Source: Candidatus Fimimonas merdipullorum (GTDB lineage: Bacteria > Bacillota > Clostridia > Christensenellales > CAG-314). From it: 54,979 nt of DNA. The stretch is taken from assembly GCA_018713905.1 (NCBI GenBank), contig DVOC01000065.1, positions 1 to 54,979 on the forward strand, given 5' to 3'. A program made the position numbers and the translations under genes. Of this stretch, positions 3,346-51,097 are shown one piece after another (the first letter of the stretch is position 1; each line of letters begins with the position of its first letter). The notes below the pieces were generated by a model. The model worked only from the letters and a program-made list of their open reading frames with translations. It searched no databases and was not told the DNA's origin.

Positions 3346-4524
3346 TTAATCCTTTATGACTTTCAAAAATACCTGAGTGAATTTCTTTTCGTCCCACAGC
3401 TGCGGTACGGGGTAAAGGGGGTTTGCCTCCCTTGCCGCATGCGCCGCAAGAAAGGGCACGTCCGCCCTGCGCGCTTCGGCAAACGCGTCGGGAATGCCCG
3501 TTTTTTCGTTGAGGGCGCGAATTGCCTCAATAAATTTTTTTGCGGCGACGGACGCCTCGTCGGAAGAATGCGCCACGTTACACAAAACCGCAAGACGTGC
3601 CAGCTTTTTGTGTACGCATTTACCGTATTCTTCCAGCACCACCGGCAACAGCACGGCGTTTGCCACTCCGTGCGCAGTGCCGTATCTGCCGCCCAAGGAA
3701 TGCGCCATTGCGTGAACGTTGCCCACGTAGGCGCGGGTAAAGGCAAGCCCTGCAAGATACGCCGCCCGCTGCATTTGCTGCCGCGCTTCTACGTTGCCGC
3801 CGTCGCAATAGGCCGCGTACAGATATCGGAAGATAAGCTCTGTCGCTTCCTCCGCCTGTTTTTTGGTGGCGGAAGTGTTGCTTCTGCCCACGTACGCCTC
3901 TACCGCGTGCGTCAGCGCGTCCATGCCGGTGGAAGCCGTGAGATGTGCGGGAAGTCCCACCGTCAGCAGAGGATCCAGCACGGCATACCGCGGAATAAGC
4001 GCAAAGTCGTTTATGGCGTATTTGTCCTGCTTTTCCGAGTCCGTTATCACGGCGGCGACGGTACATTCGCTGCCCGTGCCCGCCGTTGTGGGCACGGCGT
4101 ACAGCGTAGGTATGGCTTTGCGCACTTTCAGCAGTCCGCGCAGTTGGTTTACGCTCTTATCGGGACGTGCGACGCGCGCCCCCACCGCTTTGGCGCAGTC
4201 CATAACGGAGCCGCCGCCCACGGCGACAATGCAGTCGCACCCGTTTTTTTCGTACAGCTTTACCGCTTCTTCCACCTGCGCTACGGTGGGGTTAGGCAAA
4301 ACTCCGTCGTACAGGGGATAGTTCTCCAAGCCTTTGGTGACGCCGCGCGCCACACCCGATTTGTCGCATATCACGAGGGGAAAGCCCTTGCCCACCTTTT
4401 GCGGCAGCGACCTGAAACAGCCCTCGCCCGTAATAAGCTCCGGCTGACGCCACGGCATGAACACCATTGCCGTGCGCACCGCTGCCTGATATACTCTGCA
4501 AAAAACCTTTTTGTAAAACTTCAT
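3346..4524 (-). CDS. Iron-containing (group III) alcohol dehydrogenase
   Basis: GGGSVMDCAKA motif and His-rich metal site HAMAHSLGGRYGTAHG. Start set to ATG 4524 (MKFYKKVF...). The 64 extra N-terminal codons in the ORF track are Arg/His-rich and unsupported. Confidence 0.85.
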   Translation of the reverse strand: MKFYKKVFCRVYQAAVRTAMVFMPWRQPELITGEGCFRSLPQKVGKGFPLVICDKSGVARGVTKGLENYPLYDGVLPNPTVAQVEEAVKLYEKNGCDCIVAVGGGSVMDCAKAVGARVARPDKSVNQLRGLLKVRKAIPTLYAVPTTAGTGSECTVAAVITDSEKQDKYAINDFALIPRYAVLDPLLTVGLPAHLTASTGMDALTHAVEAYVGRSNTSATKKQAEEATELIFRYLYAAYCDGGNVEARQQMQRAAYLAGLAFTRAYVGNVHAMAHSLGGRYGTAHGVANAVLLPVVLEEYGKCVHKKLARLAVLCNVAHSSDEASVAAKKFIEAIRALNEKTGIPDAFAEARRADVPFLAAHAAREANPLYPVPQLWDEKKFTQVFLKVIKD

Positions 4525-23133: not shown

Positions 23134-24225
23134 TCACAGCGCCTTTTGCAGATAGTCTTCGATGAAGGGCTGAATGTTGCCGTCCATTACGTCGGCGATG
23201 TTGGCGTTTTCAAAGTTGGTGCGATGATCCTTTACGAGGGTGTAGGGACAGAACACGTAGGAGCGAATCTGACTGCCCCACTCTATCTTTTTTATTTCCC
23301 CCTTTATGGCGGTGGCTTCCTCCATCTGTTCGCGCTCTTTCAGTTCGGCAAGCTTGCTTTTGAGCATAAGCATTGCCTGCTCTCTGTTTTGTATCTGACT
23401 GCGCTGCGTCTGGCAGGACACCACAATGCCCGTGGGAATATGCGTTATGCGAATGGCGCTTTCCGTCTTGTTGATGTGCTGTCCCCCCGCGCCGCTGGAA
23501 CGGTAGGTATCTACCTTCAAGTCTTTGTCCTCTATCACTATGTCGTTGTCCTGCGGCAGTTCCGGCATGACTTCGAGGGAGGCAAAGCTGGTGTGGCGGC
23601 GTTTTTGCGCGTCGAAGGGGGAGATGCGCACCAGACGGTGCACGCCCTTTTCCGCTTTGAGATAGCCGTAGGCGTTTGCCCCGATAATGTTGAAGGTGAC
23701 GGATTTTATGCCCGCTTCCTCGCCGGCAAGAAAGTCCGTTTCCTGCACCTTGTAGCCCCGTCTTTCGGCATAGCGGGTGTACATACGGTAAAGCATCTGC
23801 ACCCAATCCTGCGCCTCGGTGCCGCCGGCTCCCGCGTGCAGCGTAAGTATGGCGTTGTTGGCGTCGTACTTGCCGGAAAGCAGCGTGGCTATGTGCAGCT
23901 CGTTTATTTCCTTTTCCAGCCTGTTGACCTCTTCCGCCGTTTCCGAAAGCATTGCTTCGTCGTCGCATATTTCCAGCAGCTCCTCTGCGTCTGCCGCCCT
24001 TGCAGTAAGCTTGGAATAGTTTTCTATCTTATCCTGCAGGTTTTTGGCGCGCTGACTTACCTGCTGGGCATTTTTTACGTCGTTCCAGAAGTCGGGGCTG
24101 TGCTGCTGCTCGGTGAGCGTTTGCAGTTCCTCCTTCATTTTGGGCAGATCGAGGCTTTCGCCCACGCCGTTAAGTTTAGATTGCAGCGCCTTTAACTGTT
24201 GTTTTACGTCTTCTATCTGAATCAT
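23134..24225 (-). CDS. prfB: Peptide chain release factor 2 (single uninterrupted ORF)
   Basis: SPF tripeptide region, GGQ motif (SGAGGQHINKTESAIRITHIPTG) and DFWND block; 363 aa. Starts 1 nt after the secA stop. Confidence 0.95.
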   Translation of the reverse strand: MIQIEDVKQQLKALQSKLNGVGESLDLPKMKEELQTLTEQQHSPDFWNDVKNAQQVSQRAKNLQDKIENYSKLTARAADAEELLEICDDEAMLSETAEEVNRLEKEINELHIATLLSGKYDANNAILTLHAGAGGTEAQDWVQMLYRMYTRYAERRGYKVQETDFLAGEEAGIKSVTFNIIGANAYGYLKAEKGVHRLVRISPFDAQKRRHTSFASLEVMPELPQDNDIVIEDKDLKVDTYRSSGAGGQHINKTESAIRITHIPTGIVVSCQTQRSQIQNREQAMLMLKSKLAELKEREQMEEATAIKGEIKKIEWGSQIRSYVFCPYTLVKDHRTNFENANIADVMDGNIQPFIEDYLQKAL

Positions 24226-30038: not shown

Positions 30039-31226
30039 CTATTTCTCCGCGGCGGCGTACTTTTTCAGTTGCTCCGCCATATCAGTCTGTTCCCACGGGA
30101 ACTGCTCTCTGCCAAAGTGTCCGTAGCTTGCCGTCGCCTTGTATATGGGACGCTGCAAGTCGAATTTGTTTATTATTGCGCGGGGACGAAGGTCGAACTC
30201 CTTCGTTATCGCGTCGGAAAGCGCCCCGTCGCTTATTACGCCCGTGCCGAAGGTGTTTACGTCCACCGAAACGGGCTTGCTGCGCCCTATGGCATAGGAA
30301 ACCTGAATCTGTATGCGCTTTGCCAGCCCTGCCGCCACGACGTTTTTGCATATATACCTTGCCATGTACGCCGCCGAACGGTCCACCTTGGTGGGATCCT
30401 TGCCGGAAAAGGCGCCGCCGCCGTGCGCACAGTAGCCGCCGTAGGTGTCTACGATAAGCTTTCTGCCCGTAAGCCCGCTGTCCGCCGCGGGGCCGCCGAT
30501 TTCAAAACGCCCCGTGGGGTTGATGTAGTACTTTGTCTTTTCGTCCAGCAGCTCCAGCGGCACCACGTCGCGTATTACGAAACGTATCATGTCCCGCGCA
30601 ATGGTCTGACTGTCAACGTCGGGGCTGTGCTGTGCCGAAAGCACTATGGCGTCTACCCTTGCGGGCTTGTCGCCGTCGTATTCCACCGTCACCTGACACT
30701 TGCCGTCGGGACGAAGATAACCGAGTATGCCCTGCTTGCGCACCTCCGCCAGCCGTTTGCTTATTTTCTGCGCCAGCGTTATCGCCATGGGCATGTATTC
30801 CGACGTTTCGTCGCAGGCGTAGCCGAACATCATGCCTTGGTCGCCCGCGCCGTAAATGTCCAGCACGTCCCCCTCCGTGCGGTATTCCCCCGATTTGTCT
30901 ACGCCGAGGGCAATATCCGGCGATTGCTTATCCAGCGAGATGATTACGCCGCAGCTGTCGGCGTCAAAGCCGTACTTGGCGCGGGTGTAGCCAATTTCGC
31001 GCACCGTGTCACGCACTATGGAGGCGTAGTCCACTATCGCCGTGGTGGTTATTTGCCCCATCACAAACACCGTGCCCGTGCATACCACCGTTTCGCACGC
31101 CACGCGCGCGTCGGGATCCTGCGCTAAAATGGCGTCTAAAATGGCGTCGGAAATCTGGTCGCACATTTTGTCGGGGTGTCCTTCGGTAACGCTTTCCGAA
31201 GTGAAAAATCTTCTTTTGTTCGTCAT
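30039..31226 (-). CDS. metK: S-adenosylmethionine synthetase
   Basis: [32 protein letters not shown] and [19 protein letters not shown] motifs. Start set to ATG 31226 (AAAGGAGAAAA RBS). The ORF-track extension to 31394 runs through the riboswitch. Confidence 0.95.
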
Positions 31227-31269: not shown

Positions 31270-31424
31270 AAAAAACGGCTTGCCGCGTGGGACAAGACCG
31301 GTTTGCACTCCATTCCTTTCGCCGTCCCATCTTTCAGGGTGATTGCCCTGCGGAAATTAGCACCTAACGGTATTTTAGGTTGCTGTGACTTCATCGAGTC
31401 CGTCTCTCTGTCACTCTCGATAGG
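31270..31424 (-). promoter_or_regulatory. SAM-I (S-box) riboswitch with terminator expression platform, leader of metK
   Basis: Minus-strand RNA CCUAUCGAGAGUGACAGAGAGACGGACUCGAUGAAGUCACAGCAACCUAA..UUAGGUGCUAAUUUCCGCAGGG..CCCUGAAAGAUGGGA (31424-31325) has the P1-P4 layout and conserved AUGAA / GCAACC / GGUGCUAAUU / GAAAGAU blocks. A CGGUCUUGUCC-CACGC-GGCAAGCCG hairpin plus UUUUUU lies at 31301-31270. Confidence 0.8.
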
Positions 31425-31435
31425 TTATTGCCCAT

Positions 31436-31464
31436 ATTATACTATAAACGATCTTTCCTGTCAA
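31436..31464 (-). promoter_or_regulatory. Promoter of the metK leader (TTGACA-17-TATAAT)
   Basis: Minus strand: TTGACA (31464-31459), 17-nt spacer, TATAAT (31441-31436). The -35 hexamer is the last 6 nt of repeat array R2. Confidence 0.6.
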
Positions 31465-31606
31465 CTCACCTTGCCGCACCTTGCCGGTGGGGCGAGTAGC
31501 GCACCTTGCCGGTGGGGCGACCGACGTATCTGCTTGTGGCTGACGTTTATGCTATCGGCTTGAATGCGCTTTCGTGAAACATACGGCATTTGTGGCTGAC
31601 GTTCGT
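31459..31606 (-). repeat. Array R2 of the modular repeat family (about 1.5 units, inverted orientation)
   Basis: Contains caccttgccgcaccttgccggtggggcgagtagcgcaccttgccggtggggcgaccgacgtatctgcttgtggctgacgtttatgctatcggctt, the reverse complement of the unit seen in R3 and R4. Confidence 0.8.
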
Positions 31607-31951
31607 GTTTTACCCTTTTATATACTTAATTTGACGAACGGGTATGTTATTCGTTTGTAACTGCCTTTTATTTTGGCCAAGCTGTTTTGTCCTTAAAACA
31701 GGCGTCTTTGGCGACTTGCCTTTTGTGACAACAGAATTGCAGCTGAAAGAACGTCCATTGTTGCCCTTGCGTTTTGCAAAAATGCCTTGTCCGAACGAGC
31801 GGCGTTTGCGCCCCTTTACGTTTTGTGCAAACGCTTTTGTTTTTGAGGCGTTTATATTTGCGCCCGTGAGCTTGCGTTCGTTTGCCCGCTTTTTGACGCC
31901 TTTTGCAAGCGTAAAACTGCCGCATTGTTACAAAAAACCCAATACGTATGC

Positions 31952-47838: not shown

Positions 47839-50733
47839 TCAGTCAACAAAAGTTACCGTTACCGTGGCGCTTTGGTTGGTGATACTTTCCACCTTTACGT
47901 CGAAATTTACGGCTTTGCCGTCGTTGCGGCAGTAGTTGAACACCGCAGACAGACTGCCGCCCGCCTGCCACAAGTCGCTTGCCGCGGCGTAGCCGTTGGT
48001 GCTGCGGAACTTGGTTTCGCCGTCCGCCTCCACCAGCTTGAGCAGCGGCTCGGAGGTGAGAGAGTTGTTGCAGTCGGTAAAGGAGCCGTATTCGTCGGAA
48101 TAGGGGTTATTTGCCCACCCCGTCACGTGGTAGATACGCACGCCCTTTTGCGCCCCGCCGTAAAGCAGGCTGTCCGGCTGCATTGCGTGCATCTGGTTGA
48201 GCCCGGTCGCCGTGTAGAAGTCTATCAGCAGGTACTCGGAAAAATAGGAGTTGTCGAAGTTGAGCATTATAAGCAGGCAGTCGCCGCTTTCGGCAAAGGG
48301 GGACAGCGTAAAGGTGCCGTTTTGCGTGACTATCTGCGGAGTCGTCCACCCCAGCATTATTTTGGAATAGGCGCTGTGGTCGCCCACCGTGTAGTCCATC
48401 ATATCGGCGCCGCCCACACCCTCGTCGCTGCCGCTGTCGGGATAGTAGTCGTAGTAGTCGTCCAGCCCCAAAAGGTGCCCCGTTTCGTGAATATAGGTAG
48501 AGGCGTTTATTTGCAGCCCGTCTATTTTGCCGTTGTATTCAAAACCGTCGGCTCTGTCGGCGTCCTCGTCCATAAAGTCAAAACCGGCAAACAGATAGTA
48601 GTAGGCGTCCAGCCCGTCGTACTGTTCGGCGCCCATATACCACGTTACGTACGCCCAATAGAAGGAGTCGGCGGAATAGTCCACGTCGGCGGAATAGATG
48701 AGGTACACCGCGTCTATGCAGCCGTCGCCGTTGGAGTCGTACTGCGAAAGGTCTATTCTGCCTTCCAGCCACGCCAGCACTTCCCTGAACAAGGCGTCGC
48801 TGCCGTACTCGGTGTATTGGTAGTCGCCGTCGGAAACCGTTTCGTTGTAGTTGGCGTAGTAGGAGGAGTTGTGCTGCGCCGTGTAGACGGAATTTACCCC
48901 CGCAAGGTTGTAGCCGGCAATATCGAAGCTGACGTTCAGCTTGCCGTAGGAAGATGCGGCGTAGTAGGTGTTGACGCTTTGCCAGCCCGTGTCGTCGCCG
49001 CTGCCGTTGAAGGCAAGGTTGAGCTTGTTCAGATCCGCCGAGGTTATCGCCGCCACGTCGGAAAACTGCACCGGCACCACAAGGCAGTCGTAGGTGCCCT
49101 GCGAGGGCAGTCCCACCACGTTTTCGTACCCCATAAGCTTGTCCTGCAAGCGAGAATCGTCAAAGGTCTGCTCATCGTAGCTTTGCGACGGCATGACGTT
49201 GCCTTCGCCACCGCCGCCAAGCTTGCCGTTTATCGACACGGCGGAGATATACATGGATTTTTCCGTGTTGGTGGGGGTAAGAACTATCGTCACAAGCCCG
49301 CTCGCCTGCCCGTCAGGCACAAAGTTTAGGGTGGTGTTTTCGGAAAAATGCGTCTGCTGCGCCACCATCACTTCCGTCTGCCCGTCGCATTTGAGAGCGG
49401 CGCTGCCCACAAACACCTGAACCGTCATTCCCGTAGAGCAGTTGGTGGCTACAATTACGCTTACCGTGGTCACTTCCGTGACGGAAGCCTCGGAAACTAT
49501 GGTTACCGCGCCGTTTCTTTGCAGAAACTGCACGCCGCGGTTGCCGTCGAAGCCGTTGGACACGGCGTCCGTCGTGTAGCCCAGCTGCCCCGCCGCCACC
49601 GTAAGGCGGTTGTCGGTAAACACCGATTTCATATCCGTCGCCGACTCTACGTCCTCGCCGCCCGTGCCGCCGCTGCCGTCGTCGGGCAAAGTGAACGAGG
49701 CGTTGCCGTAGTCGGAAAATTCCGCCACGAACAGGTAGCTGCCGCCGTACTCTGCGGAGGTGTCGCTCTGCTCCGCCACTATCTTGGCTATTTTGCCCTG
49801 CTCCACGTACAGCGCAAGGGACGTCCACGTGCTGTCTTCGTACTCGCCGAAAATCAGGTTGCCCGCCGCATTTGCGTCCGCCGCAGCGTAGCCGTCGCCG
49901 TCGGCAACGAATTTAAGACTGCCCAACCCCTGAACGTTTACGTAATCCATAGAGTAGTAATAGTCCATAAAGTAGGCGTCCGTCTGGTCTATTACGGTAT
50001 AACTGCCGCCGCCGTTGTCGTAGTAGTAGAAGTAACCGTTCAGGTCCGCCCTGTATTCCAAGTAGTCGGTGTACCACGCGCCTTCGTATTCGTACGTCAT
50101 AGCCACGTCGTCGCCGTACATTTTCAAGGTGTCGGTGTAGCTTACTTCCCCTTCGTAATACATGGTGTACTGCACCTTGAAGTTGTACAGGCTTGCGTCT
50201 TCGTACTGCGCAAACACGTCGGAAAGGTCGGCGTCCTCGCCAATGGCGGGGTTGCTCCACTTGGCGTACACGTCCACGTTGCCCGAAAGGCTTTGCGGCA
50301 CGCTCCACGGAATTGTGCATGCGCTGTCGGCATACCAGCCGCCGAACACCATGCTGCCGTTGGTGGGCTGCGCCGGCAATGCAAAGTTGTCGTCGAAACG
50401 CACCACTGTGCTTTCGTCGCCGTTTTGCGGATGGAAAATTACGTAATACGCCGTCTGCGGCTCGCCCCACTTGGCGTACACCACCACGTTTTGGCTTAGG
50501 CTTTCAGGAACGCTCCACGGCGTGGTGCCTTGCTTGTCGGCAAACCACCCCAAAAATTGCTTGTCGCCGTTGGTGGGCTGCGCCGGCAACGTAAAGTTGT
50601 CGTCAAATGCCACCGTCTGCGGCTGCGTGCCGTTTTGCGCGTCGAACGTCACCGTAAAGGTGAGCGGCTGACACGCCGTAAGCACCAGACACAGCAACAG
50701 CACCGTTGCCGTTACAAAAGACAGTTTTTTCAT
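47839..50733 (-). CDS. Secreted lipoprotein: two Listeria-Bacteroides (Flg_new) repeats, an unknown middle region and an M6/immune-inhibitor-A-like metalloprotease domain
   Basis: Signal peptide plus lipobox (MKKLSFVTATVLLLCLVLTAC). Two repeats of TVxFDxQNG...FxLPAQPTNGxxxFxGWFAD...PW. HETGHLLGLDDYYDY zinc motif in the C-terminal half. Start set to ATG 50733 (AGGAG 5 nt upstream). Confidence 0.8.
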   Translation of the reverse strand: MKKLSFVTATVLLLCLVLTACQPLTFTVTFDAQNGTQPQTVAFDDNFTLPAQPTNGDKQFLGWFADKQGTTPWSVPESLSQNVVVYAKWGEPQTAYYVIFHPQNGDESTVVRFDDNFALPAQPTNGSMVFGGWYADSACTIPWSVPQSLSGNVDVYAKWSNPAIGEDADLSDVFAQYEDASLYNFKVQYTMYYEGEVSYTDTLKMYGDDVAMTYEYEGAWYTDYLEYRADLNGYFYYYDNGGGSYTVIDQTDAYFMDYYYSMDYVNVQGLGSLKFVADGDGYAAADANAAGNLIFGEYEDSTWTSLALYVEQGKIAKIVAEQSDTSAEYGGSYLFVAEFSDYGNASFTLPDDGSGGTGGEDVESATDMKSVFTDNRLTVAAGQLGYTTDAVSNGFDGNRGVQFLQRNGAVTIVSEASVTEVTTVSVIVATNCSTGMTVQVFVGSAALKCDGQTEVMVAQQTHFSENTTLNFVPDGQASGLVTIVLTPTNTEKSMYISAVSINGKLGGGGEGNVMPSQSYDEQTFDDSRLQDKLMGYENVVGLPSQGTYDCLVVPVQFSDVAAITSADLNKLNLAFNGSGDDTGWQSVNTYYAASSYGKLNVSFDIAGYNLAGVNSVYTAQHNSSYYANYNETVSDGDYQYTEYGSDALFREVLAWLEGRIDLSQYDSNGDGCIDAVYLIYSADVDYSADSFYWAYVTWYMGAEQYDGLDAYYYLFAGFDFMDEDADRADGFEYNGKIDGLQINASTYIHETGHLLGLDDYYDYYPDSGSDEGVGGADMMDYTVGDHSAYSKIMLGWTTPQIVTQNGTFTLSPFAESGDCLLIMLNFDNSYFSEYLLIDFYTATGLNQMHAMQPDSLLYGGAQKGVRIYHVTGWANNPYSDEYGSFTDCNNSLTSEPLLKLVEADGETKFRSTNGYAAASDLWQAGGSLSAVFNYCRNDGKAVNFDVKVESITNQSATVTVTFVD

Positions 50734-50775: not shown

Positions 50776-50804
50776 ATTTTACTATCTCGCACGCCACTTG
50801 TCAA
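50776..50804 (-). promoter_or_regulatory. Promoter of the protease gene (TTGACA-17-TAAAAT)
   Basis: Minus strand: TTGACA (50804-50799), 17-nt spacer, TAAAAT (50781-50776). The -35 is the terminal hexamer of array R5, identical to the metK case. Confidence 0.55.
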
Positions 50805-51079
50805 CTCACCTTGCCGCACCTTGCCGCACCTCGCCGGTGAGGCGAGTAGCGTATTTGCTTGTGCCTGACGTTTACGCTATCGGCTTCAAGTTGTTTTTTT
50901 TGTGAGACGCCTTGCCGCACCTTGCCGGTGGGGCACCTCGCCGGTGGGGCGACCGGCGTATTTGCTTATGCCTGACGTTTACGCTATCGGCTTTAAGTTG
51001 CAGCATTCGCCCTGCAAGCACCGTCGGATTGTTGCCCCGCAAGCGCTTTTGACACAAAAACTCGCCACCGTATGCAAAA
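50799..51079 (-). repeat. Array R5 of the modular repeat family (2 units) plus an about 80-bp tail shared only with R6
   Basis: Two copies of gcctgacgtttacgctatcggcttnaagtt with caccttgcc/cacctcgcc mini-repeats. The tail 50997-51079 (ttgcagcattcgccctgcaagcaccgtcggattgttgccccgcaagcgcttttg...) recurs at 52998-53080. Confidence 0.85.
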
Positions 51080-51097
51080 ACTCCGCACAAGGCGGAG
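51074..51097 (-). terminator. Candidate terminator of the low-GC three-gene operon
   Basis: Minus-strand CTCCGC-CTTGT-GCGGAG hairpin followed by TTTTTGCAT, 44 nt after the stop at 51141. Confidence 0.45.

Follow-up and report, generated by a model that had tools for sequence, protein, structure and literature searches.

Two genes in the window (the whole 54,979-nt stretch of DNA analysed here) are preceded by repeat arrays that meet the same consensus -35 box, which raises the question of whether the arrays donated these boxes, were drawn to them, or abut promoters that were already in place. The 28-mer TGTCAACTCACCTTGCCGCACCTTGCCG on which the question turns is present in the window as two exact copies, both on the + strand and with zero mismatches (0 expected, from 100 shuffles), and a scan of the whole 1.3-Mb assembly (103 contigs, 91% complete) found these two copies only:

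31459 to 31486, + strand: 28-mer copy 1, consisting of the -35 hexamer (TGTCAA on the + strand), 2 nt (CT), and an array head of two 10-nt half-units CACCTTGCCG
50799 to 50826, + strand: 28-mer copy 2, located by sequence search

On the minus strand, the 28-mer terminates in TTGACA. Ungapped identity between the two loci reaches 28 nt at most, with differing flanking bases (c vs t preceding, g vs c following), and past a 10-nt indel the two arrays stay similar. The preliminary description had reported this identity, a TTGACA placed 17 nt from TATAAT at metK and from TAAAAT at the protease gene, and a loss of identity at the hexamer. Each of these was reproduced: a promoter scan gave a 12/12 consensus match for TTGACA-17-TATAAT at 31464-31436(-) and an 11/12 match for TTGACA-17-TAAAAT at 50804-50776(-), and the sequences of the two loci differ in both spacers and -10 regions.

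Promoter conservation at metK

The following features were annotated at the metK locus:

30039 to 31226, - strand: metK (S-adenosylmethionine synthetase), with Pfam S-AdoMet_synt N, M and C domains
31324 to 31426, - strand: SAM-I riboswitch aptamer (RF00162), 76.7 bits against a gathering score of 44.4, covering model positions 1-108 of 108
31436 to 31441, - strand: -10 box TATAAT of the metK leader, 17 nt from the -35 box
31459 to 31464, - strand: -35 box TTGACA of the metK S-box leader promoter, from the promoter scan and genus conservation
31467 to 31650, + strand: mosaic repeat array upstream of the metK promoter, tail end approximate

The -10 box ends 9 nt before the start of the riboswitch model, the predicted start site (~7 nt past the -10 box) would precede the aptamer by 2-4 nt, and an intrinsic terminator at 31296-31279 lies 3' of the riboswitch. 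The array on the other side of the promoter is composed of one half-unit, full GC-rich units (CACCTTGCCGGTGGGGCGA, two copies), and filler modules of the GACGTTTAYGCTATCGGC type.

metK was found in 46 of 47 genomes of the genus, and the S-box leader was read in 30 species. All 30 of them have TTGACA, placed 39-43 nt ahead of the riboswitch P1 helix (TATCGAGAG); in 28, 17 nt separate it from a TAcAAT-type -10 box, and in none of the 29 relatives do the 100 nt upstream of TTGACA contain array units. Because the hexamer is conserved in 30/30 species, of which 29 lack an adjacent array, this comparison makes the metK -35 box ancestral to the genus, and for the same reason the repeat gives no promoter hexamer here, contrary to the earlier suggestion of a -35 box supplied by the array. 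In the window, the AT content of the 24 nt upstream of the box is 33%, against a mean of 65% in the 29 relatives; the array therefore appears to have replaced DNA upstream of -37 that is AT-rich in relatives, and the pre-insertion state would be that seen in other species with 83-89% MetK identity.

Some variation was noted elsewhere in this region. In three strains, the metK-upstream array contains an extra internal module of ~100 nt starting cggcaaggcAGTTCACttgcttcc, with a faint likeness to the promoter junction cggcaaggtgAGTTGACAgg and none further on, and in one strain the SAM riboswitch (~31340-31350) has a 1-nt insertion (cagggcaattcaccctg vs cagggcaatcaccctg), either an assembly error or a real variant. 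Beyond the array tails of both loci, window positions 31680-31950 and 50990-51090 share further similarity (gcccttgc...gcaaaa..., cgcaagcgcttttg...), which suggests that additional degenerate repeat modules may lie between the arrays and the upstream terminators.

Promoter conservation at the lipoprotein gene and the nrnA-like gene

The second copy of the 28-mer lies among the following features:

47839 to 50733, - strand: gene for a 964-aa lipoprotein, with a lipobox, two Flg_new repeats, and an M6-like metalloprotease domain (HETGH)
50776 to 50781, - strand: -10 box TAAAAT of the lipoprotein gene, 17 nt from the -35 box
50799 to 50804, - strand: -35 box TTGACA of the lipoprotein/M6-like protease gene promoter, from the promoter scan and homologues
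50807 to 51000, + strand: mosaic repeat array upstream of the lipoprotein promoter, headed by three tandem 10-nt half-units

The match of the M6-like domain to TIGR03296 (E 1.4e-26) is under the curated cut-off, and the promoter-like site is located 42 nt upstream of the ATG. In the closest species (G041, 67% protein identity), TTGACA-17-TAGAAT is found 35 nt before the lipoprotein ATG, and an array of the present species' family is absent upstream of the gene. Among eight further homologues in the genus, seven show TTGAC(A/T), with TAAAAT or TAAACT ~17 nt beyond it and at a matching distance from the start codon; in the homologues, the resulting TTGAC(A/T)-17-TAnAnT is located about 55 nt before the ATG, and the box is kept in 8/9 relatives examined, which also speaks against its supply by the array. 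The lipoprotein -35 box thus probably predates its array as well, although the evidence is weaker than that at metK because the family has many paralogues.

In G041 (C36:23400-25400, reverse strand), several copies of a gctacaagtgttttt-like tandem repeat lie ~300-450 nt upstream of the lipoprotein ATG, and occupy the intergenic region where the window's genome has the CACCTTGCCG array. Because G041 carries a different tandem repeat at this place, congeners seem to have intergenic repeat families of their own at the lipoprotein locus.

A third array head flush with a promoter was found at C83:3768, where it precedes an nrnA-like DHH gene; its sequence runs GGTGgGTTGACG-18-TATAAT. In relatives, (G)TTGAC(G/T)-17-TA(T/A)AAT is kept, and likewise the tatgtTAtAAT context. 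Judged by these comparisons between species, the -35 box is older than the array at each of the three flush sites (metK, lipoprotein gene, nrnA). The metK and lipoprotein sites both have near-perfect sigma-70/sigma-A geometry (a 17-nt spacer, inside the usual 16-18 nt, an apt distance to the first functional element, and positions conserved in the genus), and because of this geometry and conservation both hexamers probably act as -35 boxes in vivo.

Composition of the 28-nt identity

On the promoter strand, the 28-mer is made up of 20 nt of canonical array head (CGGCAAGGTG twice), the 2 nt AG, and TTGACA, such that the GGTG end of the array is 2 nt from the hexamer at both loci. What extends beyond the canonical head is 8 nt (TGTCAACT), six of which are accounted for by the hexamer. 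A search for the exact junction TGTCAACTCACCTTGCCG in 40 relatives found it in the window's own genome alone. In this genome, TTGACA is the top hexamer 17 nt upstream of TA[TAC]AAT (63 sites, followed by TTGAAA with 31 and TTGCAA with 28), the base at -36 of promoter-like sites is most often G (34%), and the dinucleotide AG directly precedes the hexamer at 6% of such sites. Given an array head beside both promoters, a common TTGACA with two common preceding bases is a mild coincidence. Because the head stops 2 nt short of an ancestral -35 box at both loci, the 28-nt identity is best read as composite: an array head and a chance AG would have been joined to a consensus hexamer that both promoters already possessed.

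The repeat family

The array unit, CACCTTGCCGGTGGGGCGA, amounts to a weak hairpin; its stems are CTYGCC/GGCGAG, of which CTCGCC/GGCGAG is visible in predicted folds. Allowing 1 mismatch, 47 matches to CCTTGCCGGYGRGGCGA were found in the window's genome, and the reversed control gave 0. Arrays sit between genes, and their units alternate with filler modules such as GACGTTTACGCTATCGGC. An array head consists of one to three 10-nt half-units ahead of a full unit; on the opposite strand it reads ...CCGGCAAGGTG CGGCAAGGYG up to the array end. This canonical head (full unit plus CGGCAAGGYG half-unit(s)) was present at no fewer than eight arrays with unrelated flanks, and where head sequence occurs inside arrays it runs on into other bases, for example tctcacaaaaaaaa or cagttcac.

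Related single units were found in a few congeners, notably G052 (17 sites), and the arrays appear essentially confined to the present species. When metagenome and genome contigs were scanned with a degenerate head pattern (CCTYGCCGCRCCTYGCCGG), the matches listed included chance matches in GC-rich taxa (Actinomycetes, Alphaproteobacteria), and the relevant records among them came from two congeners only. Neither terminal inverted repeats nor target-site duplications were noticed in the arrays as read. A Y1 (RAYT/IS200) transposase (PF01797) as mobiliser of the arrays was rejected, since no match to the family was found in the 91%-complete assembly, and control genomes gave matches. Strong secondary structure of the head was likewise rejected; compared with shuffled sequence, folding of the head region gave z values from +0.7 to -2.2, with metK no better than shuffled sequence and the lipoprotein locus marginal.

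A second repeat module, often 3' of the GC-rich unit, was also seen (ggcttgcgcagccggcgacgtg...ctTTGACAggggcaaaa...aatatt..., and in the opposite orientation ...aatattttgccgttgcccctgtca...), at C83:3895-4450, C72:5640-5760, C78:250-520, C31:~1975-2040, C70:~3990-4060, and C88:~23240-23330 of the window's genome. It has a TTGACA of its own with a weak TATTGT-like hexamer ~17 nt on, and might be a promoter-bearing or small-RNA module. In G052, a rabbit-gut Clostridia MAG, the 17 sites are dispersed, have one to three CACCTCGCCGGTGAGGCGA units each, and continue into a conserved terminator-like hairpin (...cactcgtc...gacgagtgcaggttttt), mostly just past stop codons; they form a different mosaic built on a shared unit.

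Where array heads end

Seventeen array heads were listed in the window's genome, and their ends were assigned to the nearest functional element (stop codon, terminator T-run, or -35 box):

C28:10422, C28:5471, C78:518, C52:9215 and C52:9948: heads flush with stop codons, from long-ORF stops
feoA: head flush with the stop codon, the array sequence encoding the last feoA codons
44910, C57:433 and C52:9017: heads flush with terminator T-runs (3/17)
metK, lipoprotein gene and nrnA: heads 1-2 nt from -35 boxes (3/17)
20064: head 8 nt from TTGCAA-17-TATAAT, near-promoter (1/17)
52716, C72:5463 and C72:10053: heads 32-63 nt ahead of a -35 box, surrounded by A/T-rich DNA (3/17)
C31:1956: head with no clear neighbouring element (1/17)

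A functional element was thus found 0-8 nt from 13 of the 17 heads, and the stop-codon group (6/17) ends 0-4 nt past, or overlapping, the stop codon of a long ORF. Flushness is a general property of the heads and is not specific to promoters, which are not singled out because stop codons, T-runs, and -35 boxes alike adjoin these 13 heads. The GGTG end faces the promoter at 7/7 promoter-adjacent arrays, and two of the 17 heads end in TGTCAA. The preliminary description had proposed that array ends be surveyed for -35/-10 geometry; such geometry is enriched (4/17), but as one instance of heads abutting any functional element. In another species (G047, C1:444659-445075), a single unit lies 0 nt from TTGACA-16-TAGAAT on the opposite strand, a fourth unit abutting a -35 box.

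The explanation that we consider probable is that both promoters are native and ancestral, that species-specific arrays came to abut them, that the 28-nt identity is composite, and that the array boundary is set by constraint. A mosaic intergenic array family restricted to this species, built from GC-rich units and fillers, would have filled the intergenic DNA upstream of both genes, taking the place of usually AT-rich DNA upstream of -37 without creating promoters, and its head would stop 2 nt short of each gene's own -35 box. Insertion, array turnover, and deletion would be tolerated only until the first base under selection, so that heads would come to end flush with the next constrained element, whether stop codon, terminator T-run, or -35 box. 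Most likely, then, the arrays extend through all dispensable intergenic DNA and stop where the first constrained base is reached, and we infer that selection sets this boundary. The case is largely ordinary: in a compact genome, a repeat family packs the DNA between genes and so comes up against native consensus promoters.

Array variation among strains

Strains were represented by ENA chicken-gut assemblies with identical proteins. At metK, the junction is fixed in five strains while the array is reshuffled: the intergenic length varies from 764 to 1045 nt, the array head is invariant, and the distal part varies. At the lipoprotein gene, junction and head are constant in three strains, one of which has an extra internal module. 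The nrnA junction is fixed in ten strains and in the window's own genome, despite polymorphism of the promoter-proximal unit, which is CGGCGAGGTG, CGGCAAGGTG, or CGGCAAGGTA depending on the strain. A clear view of a head reshuffling against a fixed boundary is given by the 3' end of bPH_2, where ten strains have at least six forms of the first unit and the distance from the TGA to the array is 0 or 2 nt in every strain. No array-free (empty) site was found at the studied loci among strains or sister species. A stronger conservation of promoter-proximal than of stop-proximal units was also considered and was ruled out by the variation of the nrnA-proximal unit.

Alternative explanations

Some of the adjacency could also have a mechanistic origin, with hexamers that are native but with array seeding that prefers to place the head beside RGTTGAC (on the array strand, GTCAACY). 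At 4/17 heads, GTCAAC is found within 5 nt, at a nominal P of 2e-8 against its genome frequency for a motif that was picked post hoc. Three of these four are native -35 boxes with G at -36, as in 3/3 flush promoters, and the fourth is outside a promoter, being formed by the Val-Asn codons before the bPH_2 stop (C52:9215); the single unit of G047 flush with TTGACA-16-TAGAAT is a further point in favour of such seeding. The native -35 boxes, however, already explain three of the four cases, G at all three -36 positions has a probability of ~0.04 given its 34% frequency, and a single coding GTCAAC among 17 heads is expected by chance at ~0.03. This coding GTCAAC is invariant in ten strains, and no usable genus orthologue of bPH_2, an accessory gene, was found with which to test whether it is native. 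The remaining 13 heads lack the motif and instead abut T-runs or stop codons, related units in G052 have GTCAA at 0/17 sites, and the Y1 (IS200/RAYT) transposase missing from the 91%-complete assembly counts against targeting too. The association is suggestive, but we regard such a preference as unlikely. The stronger form of the proposal, in which a preference for GTCAAC(Y) would make G-preceded -35 boxes insertion hot spots and the repeat would home to promoters, appears at least as unlikely. The preliminary description had offered insertion targeted to promoters as its second option, for which no specific support was obtained, stop codons (6/17) and T-runs (3/17) being met as closely as -35 boxes; promoter targeting is only weakly supported and is unneeded to explain the data.

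That the head is itself a functional upstream promoter element, kept against the -35 box by selection, is improbable in our judgement, and so, even taken together, are its variants, in which two helically phased 10-bp direct repeats at -38 to -57 would be a shared protein-binding or UP-replacing site, or the hairpins would be insulating. Such a role would suit the unchanged head in the five metK and three lipoprotein strains amid varying distal modules, the low AT content upstream of the metK -35 box relative to other species, and the uniform orientation of the GGTG end toward promoters. It does not suit the heads that abut stop codons and terminators, where a promoter function is impossible, nor the polymorphic nrnA-proximal unit; folding is not markedly above that of shuffled sequence, and no regulator was identified.

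An outward-facing -35 box borne by the array end, which would make hybrid promoters as some IS, MITE, and Correia ends do, was judged very improbable: the inter-locus identity does cover the hexamer and halts exactly at its outer edge, and IS26/IS257 and Correia elements are precedents for promoter-forming ends (PMC7986276, PMC2649163), but the hexamer stands at the equivalent position in 29/29 array-free species, relatives keep the box in their promoters of the lipoprotein gene and nrnA, only 2/17 heads end in TGTCAA, and internal copies of the head continue into other bases. Native promoters abutted by arrays whose boundary is set by constraint are accordingly retained as the probable explanation.

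Comparison with known repeat systems

A -35 box supplied by the array end would have placed the repeat among promoter-generating elements of the Correia or IS kind, here in an uncultured lineage of gut Clostridia. Promoters are generated at the ends of Correia repeat-enclosed elements in Neisseria and of insertion sequences (IS26/IS257, IS1, IS2) (PMC2649163, PMC7986276, PMC9330008), and like these, the present repeat has an end that is spaced from a gene's upstream -10 box as a -35 box would be. Unlike them, its -35 box is older than the repeat and is kept in 29 array-free relatives. Membership in the class of mobile elements with outward -35 boxes was rejected, as the hexamer is present without the element and is not constant at other termini (2/17). 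With two ancestral promoters and a repeat that does no more than lie against them, a promoter-donation mechanism is unneeded.

Closer likenesses are found in enterobacterial BIME/REP, in STAR of Staphylococcus aureus, and in BOX of Streptococcus pneumoniae, which also combine GC-rich, imperfectly palindromic units with a few fillers in intergenic DNA, and in which loci are fixed while copy number and order vary between strains. The present family differs from these in that its unit is species-specific, with related single units in a few congeners, and in that its heads are flush (0-4 nt) with stop codons, terminators, and -35 boxes; unlike REP/BIME, it is not accompanied by a RAYT/Y1 transposase in the 91%-complete assembly. 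Because heads stop a few bases from stop codons, terminators, and -35 boxes alike, the arrays of this compact genome would constitute a natural map of the onset of constraint.

The metK leader resembles other Firmicutes metK S-box leaders in its order of elements, with a consensus sigma-A promoter, an aptamer a few nt past the predicted start, a terminator, and then metK. If the preference for GTCAAC(Y) were true, the repeat family would systematically strip promoters of upstream (UP-element) DNA without supplying them. The array-abutted promoters of the metK, lipoprotein, and nrnA-like genes offer a natural test of dependence on upstream DNA: unlike the S-box leaders of its relatives, in which the DNA upstream of -37 is usually AT-rich, the metK leader has a GC-rich array in that position.
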